This document shows, one piece after another, positions 2,120-11,332 of a DNA stretch of 32,000 nt; the stretch's first letter is position 1, and each line of letters begins with the position of its first letter. A program made the position numbers and the translations under genes. Source of the DNA: Candidatus Saccharimonadota bacterium (GTDB taxonomy: Bacteria > Patescibacteriota > Patescibacteriia > 2-12-FULL-60-25); contig CP064964.1 of the NCBI GenBank assembly GCA_016699205.1, forward strand, positions 210,001 to 242,000. The letters are read 5' to 3'. Below the pieces are notes generated by a model. The model was not told where the DNA came from and did not search any database. It saw only the letters and a list, made by a program, of their open reading frames with translations.

Positions 2120-5100
2120 CTATTCGCCGCTCCAATCCTTACAAAGCATCTCCGCCTGCTCAAGAACGGTCTTGGTTGCGAGCTCCTGCTTGTCAGGCGG
2201 ATACTGATATTTCCTCAAAAGTTTCTTCACCATTACGCGCAACTTCGCCTGTACATTTGCCTTTAGCGTCCAATCGATAGATGTATTTTTACGGAGCATT
2301 TCTACTAGTTCTTGTGCGATCTTTTTGAGCGTATCATCGCCTAGCTCATTTGCCGCGCTCTCATTTTCATAAAGCGCATCATAAAATGCGATCTCTTCCG
2401 GTGAGAGCTTTAGGTCTACCTCTCTCGCCTGTTCTGCTTTAATCTTTTTGGCGAGTTCGACAAGTTCAGTAATGACTTGCGCTGCTTCGATTGTTTGATT
2501 TTGGTATTTACTAATTGTGTCCTCAAGCATCTTGGAGAATGTGCGCGACTTGACCAGGAACTTCTTCTGCATTGAACGAACCTCGTCGTTTAATAATTTC
2601 TTTAAGAGCTCTAATCCCAAATTCTTGTATTTCAAGTTCTTGACCTCCTCCAAAAATTCATCAGAGAGGACCGAGATATTTGGCGTTTTTAAGCCAGCGG
2701 CTTCAAAAACATTAACTACCTGATCGGAGACCACAGCGTTTGAGACGATTTGCCGAATAGCATGGTCGTAATCTTCTTCTGACGGTCCCCCGCCTCCACC
2801 TGCTTGCTCGAACTTCGCCAGAATCACGCGGACTTTTTGGAAAAATCCAACATCATCACGAATATCTATAGACTCTTTGCTGGGCACGGCTAATGAGAAT
2901 GCAAACGATAAATCTGTTACCGCTTTCAGGTAACGATCTTTCCCCTGCTCTAAACCCAAGATGTAATCCATCGCACCGGACAAGATGCGCATCTTCCCCG
3001 TGGATTTATCCTCAAAATACGAGGAGTAGTCGAAACCGTGATACATCGCTTTCACGATCTCGTATTTTTCCATCATCACAGCAACAGCATCCTCCTGTTG
3101 GACCGTCGGATTCTCACGATCGGTTTCAGCGTATTGAGATAAGGCTTCTTTGAGAGCAGGTGCGATTCCAAGATAATCCACTACTAAGCCTCCTTGCTTG
3201 TCCTTGTAAACACGGTTTACGCGCGCAATAGCCTGCATAAGGCCATGACCCTTCATTGGTTTATCAAGATACATTGTATGCATCGAAGGCGCGTCAAAGC
3301 CGGTCAGCCACATATCGCGAACAATGACGAACTTTAGTTCGTCTTTTGGATCCTTCATTCGTTTGGCGAGGCTCTCGCGTTGTTTTTTGGTGTATAGATG
3401 CTTTCGCCAACTTTCCGGGTCGCTTGGCGAGGTCGTCATCACTATCTTTATAGAACCCCTGTCAAGATCATCGCTATGCCAATTCGGTCGGAGTTTAATG
3501 ATTTCCTCGTAAAGCTCAACCGCAATACGACGACTCATCGCAACGAACATCCCCTTACCATCAATCGCTCCTAGACGAGCTTCAAAATGTTCAACAACAT
3601 CTTTCGCAATAAGACTGAGACGCTTCTCTGAGCCTACCATTGCCTCTAAACGCGCCCACTTGCTCTTTAATTCCTCTTTTCTTGAAGTCTCCTCGCCTTC
3701 TGTTATCTCTTCAAACTCAGGATCGATCTTAGGTTTCTCGGCTTCTGAGAGTTGGATCTGAGCTAAACGCGCCTCGTAGTAGATAGGCACCGTCGCATGA
3801 TCCTGAACCGCTCGGTTAATATCGTAAATATCGACGTACTCGCCAAAGACCGCGCGAGTGTTGGCATCGCGGAGTTCAACAGGTGTGCCAGTAAAACCAA
3901 TGAATGATGCATTTGGCAATGCATCGCGCATGTGGCGAGCGAAACCATCGATAAAGTCGTATTGACTGCGATGCGCTTCATCAGCGATAACGACAATGTT
4001 CCGACGATCAGATAGTGGTCCGGCTCCAAAGGGATTCTCAAAGTTGAATTTCTGAATTGTTGTAAATATCACGCCACCCGCAGCAACGCTTAACAGTCGC
4101 TGAAGATCAGATCGGTCTTGCGCCTGGACTGGTGACTGACGTAGCAGCTCGGAGCAATGCGAGAAAACGCCGAACAGTTGATCGTCGAGATCGTTTCTAT
4201 CCGTGAGAATAACGAGGGTTGGGTTATCCAATACCTGAATAATTTTGCCCGCATAGAATGTCATAGTCAGACTCTTGCCTGATCCCTGCGTATGCCAAAC
4301 CACACCGCAACGGCGATCCCCTGTTTCTGACGTTGCGGCCAATGTGCGTTGAACAGATTTGTTTACTGCATGGTATTGATGATAGCCCGCAAGTTTTTTG
4401 ATCGTGTTCTCCCCGTCCGTCTCAAATACCGTAAAGTTGGTGATAATATCCAGCAACCGTTCCTTGGCGAACATTCCTTTCAAGAGCACTTCCATCTCTG
4501 GAATTGAAGTAGGCGCTACATCGTCACCATCGATTGTTCGCCACTTCATGAAACGTTCAAAATCAGCCGTAAGCGAACCGACTCTTGTATCGATGCCGTC
4601 ACTTATGATGCAGAGGCCGTTATAGGTAAAGAATGATGGAATTTCAGCCTTGTATGTTTGGAGCTGATTGAACGCATGGCGGACTGTCGCGTTTTGGTCT
4701 GCTGGATTTTTGAGTTCAAAAACTGCTAACGGGATACCGTTCACAAAGACAACGACGTCTGGTCGTCGGTTGTGATTATTTTCAATTACGGTGAACTGAT
4801 TTACCGCTAACCAATCATTGTTGGTCAGATCTTCTAAGTCGAAGAGCTTGACCTTATCACCGGCAACCGAACCGTCGTCACGGCGATACTCAACATCAAC
4901 GCCTTCAACCAACATTTTATGTAAAGCGTGGTTGGTCGTTAAAAGACTTGGGCTTGAATAGGCTACGTTGATGACTTTCTTGATCGCTTCCTCTCGAGCG
5001 TCTTGAGGGACACGGGAATTGATTTTAGCGACCACCGAGCGGAGTCGTCCGATCAATAGCACATCCTTATGCGAAAGACGTTCAGGCGCTTCGCCATCGG

Positions 5101-5197
5101 GAGCGATACTTGGACCGAAAACGACACTATAACCAAGCTCCTCGAGCCATTCGAGTGTTGCAATTTCGAGGTCTGATTCGGTGAATTTGGAGGGCAT
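2120..5197 (-). CDS. hsdR: type I restriction enzyme R subunit (helicase/endonuclease)
   Basis: 1025 aa. The N-terminus ([19 protein letters not shown]) is typical of HsdR. SF2 helicase motifs are present: TQGSGKS (Walker A), DEAHRSQ (motif II) and FTGTP. It has a long helical C-terminal domain. Start ATG is at 5197-5195, 2 nt after the upstream stop. Confidence 0.95.
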
Positions 5198-5199
5198 GT

Positions 5200-6624
5200 T
5201 TATGGATTGAGTATAATGCCGATCATCGCTTCGATCGAAGTTCGTAATTCTTGAGGCGAGAAATTAGACTGCTGCATAGACTTGTTTTCGGGATGATGAA
5301 TCTTGTTCCGAATAAATATCTGGAGTGGAACATCCTTCTCTCCTAAAGCCTGTCCGCCCCTTTCTTGGTTCCACTTTTTGGTATTTGTTTGTTGTTTCGT
5401 ATTCAAATAAGCAATCATGTCTGACTCTAGGTATTTTTGCTGCATTTCTTGTATATGTCCATAGAGCTCGTCATGAAATTCAACTGTAGCCAAATTGAAA
5501 GCTAGATAGTTTATTTCATTTGATGAGAAATATGGCAGTGTCGCAGTTGATATTGGCACGAGCTGCGGCGTCCCGCTGTTTTTACGGAGGATTTGTACGA
5601 CTACACTTTTATTGGTCATCAACTGCTTAACAAGTAACGGTGAGTGAGTTGCTAGAACAACTTGTGCGACTTTTGAGAACGCTAATAATATCTCGATAAA
5701 CTTTTCCTGTAGTGAAGGGTGCAGGTGTAATTCAGGTTCATCGATTAGACAGATTAATTGTTTCCCGCTCTGTTGCGAGAGGTAAAAAGCGATAAGAAAT
5801 GAGAAGATCATCTCATATCCAGATCCCAACATACTAAGCGGTACCTGCTGATTATTTGGTTTTTTCACCGCAAGGAACCCTTTGCTAAATGGACGCCAAT
5901 TATCAATTAAGTTCAAGCTGAGCTCATCTCCGCTTATTTCTTTGAATTTAGTGATTGCTTGTTTCAAGAATGCATTCTCTGCCGCGTCCCTAGTTGCGTC
6001 CAGGTGCTCGTGAACATTTGGGACGGAGTTCTCGTCACCAATGTGTTGAAAATCAAAATCCTCCATCAAACGATCAAATCTCGTCGGATTATAAGCTCCT
6101 AATCTCGTTTGAGAGGTACGACCCTTGTCCAAAATAAGCACATCATTTTCATCAAAGCGCCGGCCCTTAAAAGGGTTATTGACGCTCACCCTTAGATCAG
6201 GGCTTCCATCCTTCGGCTTGGCTGGATCAACTTTAATATATTGCTGATCGCTGACTACAATTGATGATAGGTATGCCTTAGTGGCCTTGGAGCGTACGTT
6301 CGCCTTAAATAAAAATCCATTTGCATTAAACTCGCCTTTTGGCATCGTGCCTGTGACTGAAAATTGCTCCCTTGATAGGAGCTTGATCTCAGCTTCTTTG
6401 GTAGGGTCATTAAAATCCTGAACGTCAAAGCTATCTGCTTTATAAGAAACTATCGGAAGCGCAATAGCTTCTAGTAAAGCCGATTTGCCACACCCATTCT
6501 CCCCGACGAAGACAGTTAATCCGCTACCATCATTCTGACCATCGGGTGCGTTCAGCTCAATCTGAAAATCGGTTTGAGCTGAAAATAATCGAAAATTTTT
6601 TATTTTTACAGTCTTGATGAACAT
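5200..6624 (-). CDS. ABC/SMC-type (OLD/RecF-like) ATPase with a C-terminal RNxxxH (HEPN-like) region
   Basis: 474 aa. ATPase motifs: Walker A GENGCGKS, signature-like LGSGYEM, Walker [16 protein letters not shown]-loop ATHSP. There is no Toprim DxD. The C-terminal ~110 aa contain [11 protein letters not shown]. The gene lies between hsdS and hsdR. Confidence 0.85.
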
Positions 6625-6655: not shown

Positions 6656-7102
6656 TCAGCCCTGCTTGCTCAGCTTATTCACAATCTTTTGGTTGAGCGC
6701 TACTTTCTTTTTCGTCTGCTTATCACTCAATACTCTCTTTCTCTGGATATCAAAATAGAAGTCTCGTTCCCATTGATTGATCCATGATTTATTATACGCG
6801 AATTCAATCGTTTCTTTGTTAAACGATTTATCAATATCCTTTTTTACCTTGGCAATAGATCTAAAAATCTTGTCTGATTTATCGATAAACTTCTTTACAC
6901 AGCAATTACCTACTCGAGCTACGCTACTCGTCTTAATATTTCTTATGAGGCAGATCTCGATGATCGGAAAATGGCCGCACATGCAGGTTTCCGGTTCATC
7001 AGCACGAACAACATTATCAAGGTCCCACTCCTGTTGAGCTTCAGCCCACTTCTGTGACTGACTCAATTTTAGCAACTCGGTGATAAGTCTATATTCAGAC
7101 AT
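6656..7102 (-). CDS. small Cys-cluster (putative zinc-ribbon) protein of unknown function
   Basis: 148 aa. It has C-x-C-G-H ... G-N-C-C (TCMCGHFPIIEICLIRN...VGNCCVKKF) and a Lys-rich C-terminus. ATG is at 7102-7100, 6 nt after the hsdS stop. Very AT-rich. Confidence 0.7.
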   Translation of the reverse strand: MSEYRLITELLKLSQSQKWAEAQQEWDLDNVVRADEPETCMCGHFPIIEICLIRNIKTSSVARVGNCCVKKFIDKSDKIFRSIAKVKKDIDKSFNKETIEFAYNKSWINQWERDFYFDIQRKRVLSDKQTKKKVALNQKIVNKLSKQG

Positions 7103-7108
7103 ATCAAA

Positions 7109-8326
7109 TCAAATCGCCCTTATTCTCCCGCTCATTAAACGCGGTAAAAGAGAATCGCGGATGGCCGACACCGTAGACATCTCCTGCTCATTACAAGATA
7201 TCGCTTGTCTGATACCTGAACACACTCCACTGAACTTCTCCAAGACATGAGCATTCGGAACAATGACCTCAACGCCATACGCCTGGTCTCGGTTCAATCC
7301 CGGAACAACTGAATCCCCGTTCACAAAAGATTGCTGTTTCAAAAGATAGTAGCAGTAAACAAGTGGAAATCTTGATTCCACATAATACGTAGTGTCAATT
7401 GGGTAAAAGTCTCCGTCCACCCAGAAAACACTACCTACATTCCCCTTTCTGCCAAGAACTATGCCGGGTCCATCAACAAGCTTCATGTTATGCGTGCCCA
7501 CATAGCCGCTGGATCCGTAAACTTTTATTACTCCCTCTGAGCGATCTTCGGCCTTAAGTGCCTTTCCATAATGTAATTTTAATACATTGCCAAGACTCTC
7601 GATTTTCCACCCTTCTGGCACCTCCCCTATCTCCGTCTCCACCATCTTCCCTCCACTCGATTTATAAGACCTCCCCTCCTCATCCGGAAACTCAAAATCT
7701 ACAAACCAACGCTTGAACAACGTACTTGCCATCTTTTCAAGGTTGGTGTTGATCTGTCGGTTGAGTTCGATTTTGTCGTCGAGAGAGGAGAGAATGGAGG
7801 CAATGCGGTGCTGTTCTGACGCTGTTGGCAAGGGAAGTAGAATCGTTTTGACTTTTTCTCGCGACAATTCCGTCTGGCCCGTGCTTCCCTCAGCGAACGA
7901 TTCGATCAGGGGCTGTATATTGCGGAGAAAATATCCGACAAAGACTGGATCAATCTCGCGATGATCCGGTCTTACAATTGTTAAGTGAGAATCAGCTGTT
8001 GTTTTTTGAAGTAGCTGTTTCACCTGACCAACTCTTCCCAGAGTGCCCTGACCAGTCGAATTGATAAGCACGTCGAATGGCTCCAGGTACTTATTCGATG
8101 GAATTTTTTGGGCTACTGGATCGGTGAGGCGCGCTTCTTCAAATCCCACTCTCCCATCTCTCACGCATTTTTGATTTAAGACGACGACGTCACTTTTTTC
8201 CGTATAACTCGGAGTCACACCCCTCGAAATAAAGCTTGTTACTTTCTCCAAATTCACAACCTCCCATTCTTCCGGAATGAGTCCGATCTCGGTTTCTTTA
8301 AAGTTTTGGGTATCCAAAATTTTCAT
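7109..8326 (-). CDS. hsdS: type I restriction-modification specificity subunit
   Basis: Two target-recognition domains are separated by the conserved central helix (ILSSLDDKIELNRQINTNLEKMASTLFKRWFVDFEFP), followed by the C-terminal conserved helix (IRDSLLPRLMSGRIR). I prefer the ATG at 8326 (MKILDTQNFKETEIGLIPEEWEV). The track start at 8377 is a TTG that overlaps the upstream gene. Confidence 0.9.
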   Translation of the reverse strand: MKILDTQNFKETEIGLIPEEWEVVNLEKVTSFISRGVTPSYTEKSDVVVLNQKCVRDGRVGFEEARLTDPVAQKIPSNKYLEPFDVLINSTGQGTLGRVGQVKQLLQKTTADSHLTIVRPDHREIDPVFVGYFLRNIQPLIESFAEGSTGQTELSREKVKTILLPLPTASEQHRIASILSSLDDKIELNRQINTNLEKMASTLFKRWFVDFEFPDEEGRSYKSSGGKMVETEIGEVPEGWKIESLGNVLKLHYGKALKAEDRSEGVIKVYGSSGYVGTHNMKLVDGPGIVLGRKGNVGSVFWVDGDFYPIDTTYYVESRFPLVYCYYLLKQQSFVNGDSVVPGLNRDQAYGVEVIVPNAHVLEKFSGVCSGIRQAISCNEQEMSTVSAIRDSLLPRLMSGRIRAI

Positions 8327-8333
8327 AGGATGC

Positions 8334-9047
8334 TTAGAATCCAATTCGTTGGAAAACGGAGAATACTCTGTAAGCAAGGTATGCGAAAAGTATCTTTACC
8401 ATATGCCATAAATATGGGAACGGATTTCCTGTCTTTAAAGTGATAAAAGTGTTTGGAAGTGTCCACCAAAGATTTATCAGCTTCTGGCTCCTTATTTGGC
8501 CTTTGTCATCGAACAATACCTCGTTGACATCCTTGAAAGTCAAAGTAAAATCGTGCTTGGGCAACGTGAATATGGAGCCGGCTTGTGCGGGCTTACGAGC
8601 CCGAACAAGGTCGTAAACGTGACTGCCAGTTAGACAGACACTAAATTTAATTATCAAATGCTTTCCTTCTTTTGGCTCGAAGAGTATGGGCAAAGACAGC
8701 TTCTTTTCGTTATCTGCAGCGGTAAAAATTTCCGCGCCCATCCCTTCAGCTAAAGTTCTCGTTCTTTTTTTGTTGCCCCAAATTACATAAAAGATCTCTG
8801 TGATCGAGTTTTGCTCGTTACTTTGATTTTTCACGTAGCCGTCAAATGCAATGTCGTAAAAATCTAGACCGTTTCTAGTTTTTACGCTACCAGCGGAGCC
8901 ACGGAAATCGAACTTAAATTTTGAACGCTTTTTTATTTGCTCTTTCAACGTAAATAGTAAAGAAATGAATCCTGCGATTGATCCTGAATCCAAAAGGATT
9001 CGTCCCCAACCATATCCTGCCAGGATATCTAATGTGCTAGACACCAT
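8334..9047 (-). CDS. hypothetical protein with N- and C-terminal hydrophobic segments
   Basis: 237 aa with ATG at 9047-9045. It has an N-terminal hydrophobic stretch (ILLDSGSIAGFISLLFTL), a beta-looking middle, and a C-terminal hydrophobic/aromatic segment (YLWHMVKILFAYLAYRVFSVF). No family recognised. It lies between an hsdS 5' remnant and the intact hsdS. Confidence 0.65.
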   Translation of the reverse strand: MVSSTLDILAGYGWGRILLDSGSIAGFISLLFTLKEQIKKRSKFKFDFRGSAGSVKTRNGLDFYDIAFDGYVKNQSNEQNSITEIFYVIWGNKKRTRTLAEGMGAEIFTAADNEKKLSLPILFEPKEGKHLIIKFSVCLTGSHVYDLVRARKPAQAGSIFTLPKHDFTLTFKDVNEVLFDDKGQIRSQKLINLWWTLPNTFITLKTGNPFPYLWHMVKILFAYLAYRVFSVFQRIGF

Positions 9048-9060
9048 AGAGTTTGATGCG

Positions 9061-9168
9061 CTAATTCAAATCTTTTGCCTGTGCAAATAACTCCAACTTC
9101 AACACTCTCCATTCTTCCGGAATAAGTCCGATATCAGTTTCTTTGAATTTTGTTTTCTGGGTTTTCAT
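9061..9168 (-). pseudogene. hsdS 5' remnant (35 codons plus stop)
   Basis: The minus-strand translation is MKTQKTKFKETDIGLIPEEWRVLKLELFAQAKDLN*. It parallels the intact HsdS N-terminus MKILDTQNFKETEIGLIPEEWEVVNLEKV. By-eye DNA identity is roughly 80% over about 57 nt (9093-9150 versus 8252-8308). Confidence 0.75.
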
Positions 9169-9239: not shown

Positions 9240-9872
9240 TCACTGCGATTCACGCGGTCCCGCTCTCAAGGCGGGATTTTCGCTTTTTGGAGGATCGCTG
9301 CGTTTATATAACTTACCAATATCGATGAATGCGTCCGCTATGCGGAATAATTCACGGGACACGGTACCACGAGCACCTACGACGTAGATCTTTCTTCCCC
9401 TGAGCTTGAGACGTTCCAGCGGTGCGTAAAAATCCGAATCGCCCGAGAAAATCATAAATCCGGAAGCTCGATCAGCGTCGTCCATGAGGTCCATCGTCAT
9501 CTCAACGTCAAAATTGCATTTGGGTTCTTCGATGAGTGTGCCGGCGGATTGAACGGACTCCACAACACTTTTCATGAGTGTGGTCGTTCCAAGGTCTAAT
9601 TGGTTCAATGTCATCTTTTTAAAAAAGATCCCCAAGTCTACCGTTTTGCGAATGAACTTAACGGGCTTTGTACGTAGAATGGCACCAGCTTCCATGACAT
9701 CACTGTTAAATGCTTCTGATTGTGATAGCGATCGTTCATTCGTTCCGTAGTACGCCTTTACTTCTCGAACATTTTGCAACGCTCTTAGCTGTTCCACGAG
9801 ACGAACGACACGGACCTTCCACCCGAGCCTCTTTTGCCAACCAATAATATTAGCCACGTCTAAATAAGCCAT
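9240..9872 (-). CDS. NYN-domain (LabA/DUF88-like, PIN-fold) putative ribonuclease
   Basis: The motifs AYLDVANI, CNFDVEMTMDLMD and MIFSGDSDFYAPLERLKLRGRKIYVVG match the NYN acidic-residue pattern. The ATG at 9872-9870 overlaps the hsdM stop as TAATG. An alternative ATG at 9896 would add 8 aa. Confidence 0.85.
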   Translation of the reverse strand: MAYLDVANIIGWQKRLGWKVRVVRLVEQLRALQNVREVKAYYGTNERSLSQSEAFNSDVMEAGAILRTKPVKFIRKTVDLGIFFKKMTLNQLDLGTTTLMKSVVESVQSAGTLIEEPKCNFDVEMTMDLMDDADRASGFMIFSGDSDFYAPLERLKLRGRKIYVVGARGTVSRELFRIADAFIDIGKLYKRSDPPKSENPALRAGPRESQ

Positions 9873-11332
9873 TATGGCTGTTTCTTTTTCAAGCATTGAG
9901 CGCCAGTCAGAGCTCCCACATATCGGCCTGGGGTCAGGACAAAGCCGTTCTTCTCCACCTCAGAGATCTTGGCCGCCTTGGAGAAACCTTTAACATCAGT
10001 ATAGGTGCAATCTTTCTTTCTCCAGCAATGATATGCTTCGGAAATCTTCTCGATGTCTTCAGCCGTAAGCTCGCGGTTCTTACGACTGACCATGGTCCCC
10101 ATTTTACGAGCGTCGATAAACAGAATTTCATCGTGACGATCACGAAACTTGTGATTATGGCGGTCACGCGAGACGAACCAGAGACAAACAGGGATCTGTG
10201 TCGTGTAAAAAAGCTGTGTCGGCATCGCAACAATACAATCGACCAGACCGTTCTTAATTAAATTCTTTCGAATTTCCCCTTCTCCGGAGGAATTAGACGA
10301 GAGCGAACCGTTAGCCAACACAAAACCAGCGATGCCTGCAGGCGAAAGATGATGAACCATGTGCTGGATCCAGCCATAGTTCGCATTTCCAGCAGGAGGA
10401 ACGCCGTATTTCCATCGGACATCATCTTTCAAACGCTCCCCTCCCCAATCGCTAATGTTGAACGGTGGATTTGCGAGAATGTAATCAGCCTTCAAATCTT
10501 TATGAAGATCGTTGTGAAATGTGTCGGCGTGATGGGGGCCCAGATTTCCGTCGATTCCACGGATAGCAAGGTTCATCTTACAAAGTCGCCAGGTTGTTGG
10601 GTTTGATTCTTGCCCATAAACCGAAATGTCATGCTTGTTACCGCCATGAGCTTCGACGAATTTCTCACTCTGAACAAACATGCCACCACTACCACAGCAG
10701 GGATCGTAAATGCGTCCCTTGTAAGGCTCTAGCATCTGAACGAGAAGCTTCACTACGCATTGCGGAGTGAAAAATTCCCCACCTCCTTTGCCCTCGGCGG
10801 AAGCAAAGCGACCCAAAAAATATTCATAGACCCGTCCCAGAATATCTTTGCTGCGACTCTCCTTGTCTCCAAGACCAATCCCGCTAACCAGATCGATCAA
10901 TTCTCCCAATCTCACCTTGTCGAGATCAGGACGCGCATAGTTCTTGGCTAGCACTCCTTTTAAGCTCGTATTGTCTTTCTCAATCGCAATCATCGCATCA
11001 TCAACCAATTTTCCAATCTCGGCTTTCTTTGCATTGTCTTTAAGGAATTGCCATCGTGCATCAGAAGGCACCCAAAAGACATCTTCAGCGAGATAGGCGT
11101 CCTTATCCTCTTCTTGACCTTCGTAATAATCCTTGTCTTTAAGGATACCTTGATACACCTCGTCAAAGGAGTCGGAAATATATTTTAAAAAAATTAAACC
11201 GAGTACAACGTGCTTGTACTCGGAAGGATCCATGTTGTTGCGCATCTTATCGGCAGCAGCCCAAAGCTTTTCTTCAAAGCCGATATTTGCTCCGGAATTC
11301 TTTATGCTTTTTTTAGCCATAATCATAGACAT
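9872..11332 (-). CDS. hsdM: type I restriction-modification N6-adenine DNA methyltransferase subunit
   Basis: It has an HsdM N-terminal domain ([40 protein letters not shown]), the SAM motif DPCCGSGGM and the catalytic NPPF. Possible starts are ATG 11332, 11326 or 11320. Confidence 0.95.

Follow-up and report, generated by a model that had tools for sequence, protein, structure and literature searches.

Does an ATPase encoded inside a type I restriction-modification (R-M) operon, at the location of the anticodon nuclease PrrC, carry a ribonuclease effector of its own, and does it act as a guard of the R-M system around it? The question is raised by a 474-amino acid (aa) protein encoded on the minus strand of a 32,000-nucleotide (nt) stretch of a Candidatus Saccharimonadota bacterium genome (assembly GCA_016699205.1, contig CP064964.1, positions 210,001 to 242,000). 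This whole stretch is termed the window, and all coordinates are positions within it. PrrC is always encoded in a type I R-M operon, with hsdS and hsdR on its two sides, and its cleavage of the tRNA anticodon loop is silenced by the Hsd complex and activated by phage Stp/dTTP. An earlier interpretation of the window, made from its letters and open reading frames (ORFs) and here called the sequence-only reading, had claimed a PrrC-like location for the 474-aa protein. This location was confirmed, as the gene lies downstream of hsdS and upstream of hsdR, with 2 nt between its stop codon and the hsdR start. We assign a probability of about 50% to the explanation that the protein functions in abortive infection as a single chain, with an OLD-type ABC ATPase as the sensor and switch and a C-terminal tail that is a highly divergent, HEPN-type, metal-independent endoribonuclease.

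An OLD-type ATPase with a conserved C-terminal tail

The N-terminal part of the protein is an ABC ATPase of the OLD/AAA_15 type. The call of an ABC/OLD-like ATPase in the sequence-only reading was corroborated by Pfam, PADLOC, NCBIfam, PDB sequence and Foldseek searches, and the motif strings that it quoted are all present at the expected coordinates in the translation of 6624..5200 (minus strand). In Pfam, the protein matched AAA_15 (4.6e-29), AAA_21 (1e-21) and DUF2813 (1.9e-6), as well as AAA_23 and SMC_N at E ≤ 0.1. The ATPase parts of AriA, GajA, PtuA, Old and MADS3 matched in PADLOC and NCBIfam (Old, 6.6e-21), with the PADLOC AriA, GajA, PtuA and Old ATPase models covering only residues 1 to ~350, and the PDB sequence matches were to PtuA, AriA, OLD, GajA and Rad50 (OLD 6p74 at 1e-6). 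A full-length AlphaFold2 (AF2) model with a predicted local distance difference test score (pLDDT) of 79 retrieved only the heads of SMC, Rad50, OLD, PtuA and GajA in Foldseek (OLD 6p74, 2.9e-13). The PrrC/RloC-type ATPase profile, AAA_13 (PF13166), was unmatched in the Pfam scan at E ≤ 0.1, in agreement with the earlier statement that the ATPase is of a type unlike that of PrrC. No library scanned gave a Toprim match to the protein, and no HNH domain was found; the sequence-only reading had also seen neither, and Pfam bore this out. The alignments of the Old, GajA and ATPase-Toprim models stop at residue ≤~370. NCBI holds a sequence with 100% identity to the protein, an "AAA family ATPase" entry labelled Candidatus Uhrbacteria bacterium. 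Residues 137-184 (window 6074-6216) are rich in invariant positions in close homologs (DLR..NNP..G.RF..ND..LD..R..Q...G....TRF) and are predicted with pLDDT < 50; they may serve as an interface, or they may be a Q-loop region that is flexible and becomes ordered only in a complex.

The C-terminal domain that defines the family (residues 360-474, ~115 aa) is covered by no Pfam, NCBIfam or PADLOC model. We assessed its conservation over 152 proteins, each of which represents a cluster at ≤50% identity. The sequence-only reading had made its nuclease proposal depend on the conservation of RNxxxH among homologs, and for the two terminal residues of the motif this conservation is complete: R439 and H444 are present in 100% of the representatives and H443 in 97%, while the residue at 440 is mostly N (83%) and less often H (14%). 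A second block in the upstream part of the tail, which includes N372, is 87-99% conserved (S367 90%, E370 91%, E382 87%, H384 93%, E386 96%, L387 99%, Y388 95%). In a diverse alignment of 79 sequences, R439 and H444 (R-x4-H) are the sole invariant columns. The Rx4-6H pattern in a single sequence is not significant, because ~1.0 occurrence is expected by chance in a 474-aa protein and exactly one is observed (0.05 expected for R[NHD]xxxH); it is the conservation that raises the motif above chance.

A profile search with the tail yielded 1,037 representative proteins (50%-identity clusters) at E ≤ 1e-3. Among the best 150 of these matches, the full-length proteins (~390-660 aa) have the tail at the C-terminus, and the shorter ones are probably gene fragments. 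All ten full-length tail proteins that were checked in Pfam are AAA_15/AAA_21 ATPases. Distant members are 40-50% identical to the window protein in the tail, compared to 16-31% in the ATPase part. When contigs were scanned with patterns from the full-length alignment, these picked generic Walker motifs, mostly of unrelated ATPases, and tail-specific patterns performed better. The family is spread over many phyla, from bacteria of the candidate phyla radiation (CPR) to E. coli prophages, and its members are annotated only as "AAA family ATPase" or "ATP-dependent nuclease".

Relation of the tail to HEPN domains and to PrrC/RloC

One hallmark of the HEPN superfamily is a metal-independent endoribonuclease activity that leaves 2',3'-cyclic phosphate ends. 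We compared the tail with HEPN domains at the level of sequence and of predicted secondary-structure order, using an AF2 model of residues 338-474 (pLDDT 93.8; predicted template modelling score 0.87). The model contains helices at 370-376, 381-395 and 400-409, a beta-hairpin at 416-432, and helices at 434-443 and 457-472. HEPN domains have been described as four-helix up-down cores with an Rx4-6H motif, in which a polar N, D or H directly follows the Arg and which is located at the end of helix 3 or where the loop to helix 4 begins; helices 2 and 3 are frequently separated by inserts, and helix 2 carries a conserved acidic residue (PMC3710099). Judged by its sequence and its predicted order of elements, the tail agrees with the motif, its location, the inserts and the acidic residue. 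The order is a helix (381-395) with E382, H384 and E386, an insert (400-432), a helix (434-443) that ends in RNKIH, a loop, and a last helix (457-472), and the Rx4-6H motif is found in the 152 representatives, nearly always with N or H after the Arg. The HEPN domains of Cas13, ApeA and RT-HEPN proteins have an R-N-x3-H-type motif in common with the tail. Scans of the tail against Pfam, NCBIfam, PADLOC and PDB sequences, run singly and with 34- and 79-member sets, gave recurrent weak matches exclusively to HEPN proteins. PADLOC Cas13a models matched 2 of the 34 and 4 of the 79 tails (three to one model and one to another; best E 1.9e-4, in a single protein), and there were further weak matches to Cas13d and RT-HEPN and, in one member, to Pfam HEPN_Apea (E 0.06-0.15). 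These Cas13, RT-HEPN and HEPN_Apea matches are suggestive of a HEPN domain and are no proof of it.

Several results weigh against the assignment. The searches for profile or structure similarity to HEPN that the sequence-only reading had proposed returned nothing significant: Pfam, NCBIfam and PDB profile searches with the tail gave no HEPN or nuclease match (they were empty or at chance level), Foldseek of the tail model against PDB reached a best E of 0.054 at a template modelling score of 0.15 with no HEPN protein among the matches, Foldseek against BFVD retrieved nothing, and a fold-level match to the Cas13, ApeA or RT-HEPN domains was likewise absent in Foldseek. The Cas13 matches are weak, their E values take no account of how many proteins were scanned, and they probably extend no further than the motif. 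In hhalign, 145 family tails compared with 21 RloC-like tails gave a local probability of 1.5% (E 0.035) and a global probability of 0.1%. The earlier label of a "HEPN-like" tail thus stands for the motif, the polar residue after the Arg, the upstream acidic residues and the predicted helix topology, but not for profile or structure similarity. We put the odds that the tail belongs to the true HEPN superfamily at roughly even, and the odds that it is an Arg/His RNase-type effector somewhat higher.

The same evidence bears on a catalytic tail that is not HEPN, namely a new alpha+beta fold converged on an Arg/His (plus Glu/His) site and acting on RNA, DNA or a nucleotide. Such a fold would agree with a confident model (pLDDT 93.8) that has no structural neighbor in PDB or BFVD, with the lack of a significant HEPN profile match, with the long beta-hairpin and extra helix, unlike the minimal four-helix HEPN, and with a second conserved block (S367, E370, N372, E382, H384, E386, Y388) that exceeds the usual single HEPN acidic residue. 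However, the R-[NH]-x3-H form of the motif, its location where the penultimate helix ends and the placement of the insert agree with the HEPN description, the recurrent weak matches are all to HEPN proteins, and the divergence among HEPN families is notorious, so that profile and fold searches often fail to detect them. We consider a non-HEPN catalytic fold unlikely. A further candidate, a His-Me finger (beta-beta-alpha) formed by the hairpin and helix, was rejected, there being no conserved His/Asp in the hairpin.

PrrC and RloC resemble the window protein in architecture: the chain begins with an ABC ATPase and ends in a small fused domain in which Arg and His are conserved. Their catalytic triad is R-x3-E-x36-52-His, often with a Ser before the His (PMC2610378). 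In the window protein, R439 is followed by N-K-I-H-H with no x3-E, and the conserved Glu residues are located 53-57 residues upstream of R439, so that the PrrC/RloC triad is absent; the family pattern is E...R-N-x2-H-H, in contrast to R-x3-E-x36-52-(S)H. Moreover, PrrC and RloC have an AAA_13 ATPase, whereas the window protein is of the OLD/AAA_15 type, without coiled-coil or zinc hook, and the PADLOC PrrC/RloC models did not match the tail. Membership in PrrC/RloC was rejected on the unmatched AAA_13 profile, the absent triad and the hhalign probabilities of 0.1-1.5%.

In E. coli APEC O1, a P2-like prophage encodes a 738-aa RloC-like AAA_13 protein (L128, 16933-19149, minus strand; NC_008563.1, 925932-928148) that has a CPFC hook together with an RNILE...GSH triad. 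Its gene lies between the replication endonuclease and portal genes, in what we take to be the P2 old/tin accessory-gene slot. The protein is probably the APECO1_4465 prototype, placed by gene order (inferred from the gi number) only. PF13166 is present in all of its relatives among the E. coli and Campylobacter RloC-like fragments. Homology of the window protein to APECO1_4465, seen by eye in a shared "Y-x-A-F...T....DEL", was rejected on the hhalign result and on the lack of conservation of this stretch in the RloC-like family. The APECO1_4465 and ERFG_01251 families combine an ABC ATPase with a C-terminal HEPN domain and occur on prophages, on mobile islands and in R-M contexts (Anantharaman et al. 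2013, PMC3710099). The window family follows the same concept, and its E. coli member is also located at a prophage edge. ERFG_01251 has a "classical" MNT-type HEPN domain and the window tail matches no classical HEPN profile or structure, a distinction made by description only. The principle of an ABC ATPase with a fused C-terminal HEPN domain, often in R-M operons, is known since PrrC/RloC and the 2013 survey (PMC3710099). OLD-type ABC ATPases are reported in the literature as coupled to TOPRIM, HNH, PD-(D/E)XK, PIN and NERD nucleases, and in the literature searched we found no description of one with a fused HEPN-like tail.

Genomic context of the family and its link to R-M systems

We examined 72 non-redundant loci of the ATPase family (loci coded L0xx or L1xx are family or comparison loci from genomes and metagenomes). 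R-M genes are present within four genes of the family gene in 29 of the 72, and in 8 of the 17 loci that have at least 3 kb of sequence to either side (~40-47%). The immediate neighbor is hsdS in 15 loci, and an ATGA-type overlap of the hsdS stop with the ATPase start was found in several (L077, L078, L088, L089). The placement between hsdS and hsdR recurs in L032, L034, L096 and L107. With X as the family gene, the arrangements are hsdM-hsdS-X-hsdR, hsdM-hsdS-X-RhuM-hsdR and hsdR-hsdM-hsdS-X. RhuM and Fic genes, which have been published as neighbors of ABC-HEPN proteins in R-M operons (PMC3710099), also adjoin family members there. In three Moranbacteria contigs (L034, L035, L036; 5500-14400), a Pycsar pair (cyclase and PycTM), the family ATPase, a 152-aa ORF and Fic lie between hsdS and hsdR, and four further ORFs lie between hsdM and hsdS, an extreme embedding of defence genes. 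In four metagenome loci (L054, L084, L090, L098), the gene of a distant member comes after those of two large proteins, a PLD-SNF2 helicase (~1,070-1,170 aa) and a methylase of the Eco57I/MmeI type (~1,100-1,200 aa) with a TaqI_C specificity domain, which is an R-M-like system other than type I. The possibility that the family is the ATPase of Hma/BREX-related systems was rejected, since the best 25 PADLOC matches of each of the four helicase/methylase-linked members were generic OLD-type ATPases, with no Hma.

The other half of the loci lie in islands that also contain integrase, recombinase or transposase genes. On a Klebsiella IncFIB plasmid, one copy stands alone with an ISNCY transposase on each side. 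Copies annotated "ATP-dependent nuclease" are present in 10 of 5,426 complete E. coli genomes, and the one in strain SCU-316 (WP_233618192.1), the sole E. coli locus inspected, adjoins a prophage integrase. The family is rare in viruses (1 of 50,697 phage records and one locus in viral contigs).

The sequence-only reading had proposed that the protein guards the R-M complex. The published paradigm is PrrC, an ABC ATPase with a HEPN-class anticodon nuclease acting as a guard in an R-M operon (PMC3710099, PMC2610378). A true guard of this type would be bound and held inactive by the HsdMSR proteins of its own operon, and its anticodon nuclease would be freed when a phage anti-restriction factor inactivates restriction. 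The window operon, with the prr-locus gene order hsdM-hsdS-X-hsdR and the 2-nt gap to hsdR, speaks for such a guard, as do the four loci with the gene between hsdS and hsdR and the four in which it is translationally coupled to hsdS. RhuM and Fic neighbors in related loci are a further trait in common with PrrC/RloC. However, PrrC is always R-M-linked, whereas the linkage of the window family is facultative: 9 of the 17 well-flanked loci are without R-M genes, and solitary copies occur on a plasmid and at a prophage edge. Because about half of the well-flanked loci lack R-M genes, a specific Hsd-guarding role is not general, and this counts against the guard function as part of any family-wide explanation. 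The PrrC/RloC hallmarks, namely AAA_13, the R-x3-E-x36-52-H triad and hhalign similarity (1.5%), are also missing. Since other R-M classes, such as the PLD-SNF2 helicase and Eco57I-type methylase systems, also flank family members, the context points to generic embedding rather than to a specific Hsd contact. The guard proposal thus retains the hsdS-hsdR location but does not extend to a general rule, and we regard a true PrrC-type guard as unlikely.

The context also bears on whether the ATPase acts with a partner. OLD, PARIS (AriA/AriB), Septu (PtuA/PtuB) and Gabija (GajA/GajB) have an ATPase of the same family as the window protein and likewise join an ABC sensor to a nuclease effector, often in or beside R-M, BREX and Hma systems. 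OLD nucleases have a C-terminal Toprim domain, in place of which the window protein has the fused ~115-aa R-x4-H domain. Septu, PARIS and Gabija have an adjacent partner (the PtuB HNH, AriB Toprim and GajB helicase proteins, respectively), whereas no neighbor other than R-M subunits recurs across the 72 loci of the window family. Because there is neither a Toprim or HNH domain nor a conserved partner gene, the tail is the only candidate effector.

In the window, a single ORF (148 aa) separates hsdS from the ATPase gene, and the sequence-only reading had considered it an extra small upstream partner gene. This claim did not hold. The ORF belongs to a family of its own with 502 proteins, marked by an invariant Cys cluster (C40-x-C42-G-H...C51...N55...G65-N-C-C68), and this family was absent from 72 of 72 ATPase-family loci. 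Its members occur without the ATPase in a Vibrio cassette array (solitary), in a Burkholderia island next to an integrase, and in a type I operon of Yonathbacteria (CPR) directly upstream of hsdR. The 148-aa protein has no Pfam, NCBIfam, PADLOC or PDB match, including none to HNH or Toprim, and is unrelated to the neighbors of ATPase homologs; a PtuB/HNH-like partner role was rejected on the lack of family or PDB matches and on the independent distribution. Since it is independently distributed and absent from the 72 loci, we classify it as a cassette embedded independently of the ATPase gene rather than as a partner, and it is in its own right a candidate for a defence gene embedded in R-M operons.

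These observations also concern the alternative of a non-catalytic tail, a module that would bind a ligand, nucleic acid or partner while the protein acts through ATP hydrolysis or a nuclease encoded elsewhere. There is precedent in the OLD-type PtuA and AriA, which carry no nuclease and work with a separate partner, and no nuclease similarity was detected for the tail. Yet the 72 loci reveal no conserved neighbor that could serve, mobile copies are solitary, the tail is more conserved than the ATPase, and an invariant Arg and His with near-invariant His, Glu and Tyr are typical of catalysis over binding. We consider a non-catalytic tail very unlikely.

For the favored explanation, an OLD-type sensor with a HEPN-type ribonuclease tail, we infer the RNase chemistry, activation by dimerization, the trigger and the abortive outcome as follows. 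The protein would be inactive when there is no infection. By analogy with PrrC, PARIS and OLD, a phage cue, for instance DNA ends, an altered nucleotide pool or a protein with anti-restriction activity, would act on the ATPase head and its inserts. ATP-dependent head-to-head dimerization, as in the normal ABC ATPase cycle, would then let the two C-terminal domains meet, so that two R439/H444 motifs, aided by N440, H443 and E382/H384/E386, could form a composite RNase site. Cleavage of tRNA, rRNA or mRNA at this site would stop translation and abort the infection. Embedding next to hsdS would provide co-expression and co-transfer with the first-line DNA defence, with the ATPase protein as a backup against phages that disable restriction. 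The Hsd complex may silence the protein of the window operon as it does PrrC, which would not be required family-wide. The solitary copies on the Klebsiella plasmid and at the E. coli prophage edge, together with those in integrase/recombinase islands, support a stand-alone effector. We also advance, as a tentative proposal that is possible rather than probable, that an unrecognized ~115-aa effector (an extreme HEPN outlier or a new Arg/His-RNase fold) joined to an OLD ATPase constitutes a widespread single-gene abortive-infection system, preferentially wired to type I hsdS and often translationally coupled to it, as a backup triggered by anti-restriction.

The R-M operon of the window and significance of the family

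On the minus strand, the ORF list and Pfam define a single, tightly packed type I R-M operon at 2.1-11.3 kb of the window (Table 1).

Table 1. Positions of the R-M operon genes in the window and of domains and motifs in the 474-aa protein.
Feature	Position	Strand	Basis
hsdM (methyltransferase subunit)	9872..11332	-	Pfam N6_Mtase 6e-111, HsdM_N
NYN/LabA-like gene, 218 aa	9240..9896	-	Pfam NYN 7e-18, PADLOC NYN 3e-9, HEC-09 8e-5
237-aa ORF	8334..9047	-	ORF list
hsdS (specificity subunit)	7109..8377	-	Pfam Methylase_S 2.9e-24
148-aa Cys-rich ORF, between hsdS and ATPase gene	6656..7102	-	ORF list
474-aa ATPase-plus-tail gene, stop codon included	5200..6624	-	ORF list
OLD/AAA_15-type ABC ATPase domain, residues 1-~345	5590..6624	-	Pfam, PADLOC, Foldseek
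Walker A GENGCGKS, residues 41-48	6481..6504	-	Translation; G41, E42, N43, G46, K47 invariant in 40 homologs
ABC signature LGSGYEM, residues 266-272	5809..5829	-	Translation; G267, G269, E271 invariant in 40 homologs
Walker B/D-loop, residues 293-303	5716..5748	-	Translation; D295, E296, E298, L299-P303 invariant in 40 homologs
H-loop ATHSP, residues 325-329	5638..5652	-	Translation; S328, P329 invariant, H327 at least 90% in 40 homologs
Family-defining C-terminal domain, residues 360-474 (~115 aa)	5203..5547	-	AF2, profile search
Tail N-terminal motif S367-x2-E370-x-N372-Y-x-A-F...T380-x-E382-x-H384-[ND]-E386-L-Y388	5461..5526	-	152 representatives
RNKIHH (R439-H444), candidate Rx4H catalytic motif, end of penultimate helix	5293..5310	-	Conservation, AF2
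hsdR (type I restriction subunit)	2120..5197	-	Pfam HSDR_N, SWI2_SNF2, T1R_D3-like, T1RH-like_C

The NYN/LabA-like gene overlaps the hsdM stop by 25 nt, and NYN genes also flank type I operons bearing the ATPase family in L034 and L058. The 237-aa ORF, a fourth gene embedded in the operon, shares 44 nt with the start of hsdS; searches of Pfam, NCBIfam and PADLOC gave no match to it. Between it and the NYN gene, at 9061-9168 (minus strand), lies a 35-codon remnant of an hsdS 5' end (MKTQKTKFKETDIGLIPEEWRVLKLE...stop), which repeats the beginning of the intact hsdS gene with 82% nucleotide identity (counterpart at 8246-8306). This copy suggests that a recombination event at the 5' end of hsdS brought in the 237-aa cassette. 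The GC content is 41-47% over window positions 5-10 kb, which hold the embedded genes and hsdS, compared to 50-56% in the flanks; the low GC is consistent with horizontally acquired cassettes. Outside the operon, a 50-nt direct repeat (88% identical; 895-944 and 1238-1287) contains a 25-nt palindromic hairpin (TCCCTCTCCTTCGTAAGGAGAGGGA), and related 17-nt CACCTCACCCTC repeats are located at 1191-1254, in the intergenic region upstream of an SPFH/band-7-like gene.

In bacterial immunity, modules that join an ABC ATPase to a nuclease (PrrC, OLD, PARIS, Septu, Gabija) form a major theme, and the family described here would add to the OLD branch a fused tail with R-x4-H instead of a Toprim or HNH domain. 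With ~1,000 clusters at 50% identity in many phyla, it is a large uncharacterized candidate defence family. Its recognition would improve the annotation of defence islands, including those of CPR genomes. Members are carried by tractable hosts such as E. coli and Klebsiella, which makes toxicity, phage defence and RNA cleavage experimentally accessible. If the favored explanation is true, the family would provide a one-protein system for how an ABC ATPase cycle gates an RNase, and would help to explain the coupling of such cassettes to hsdS.

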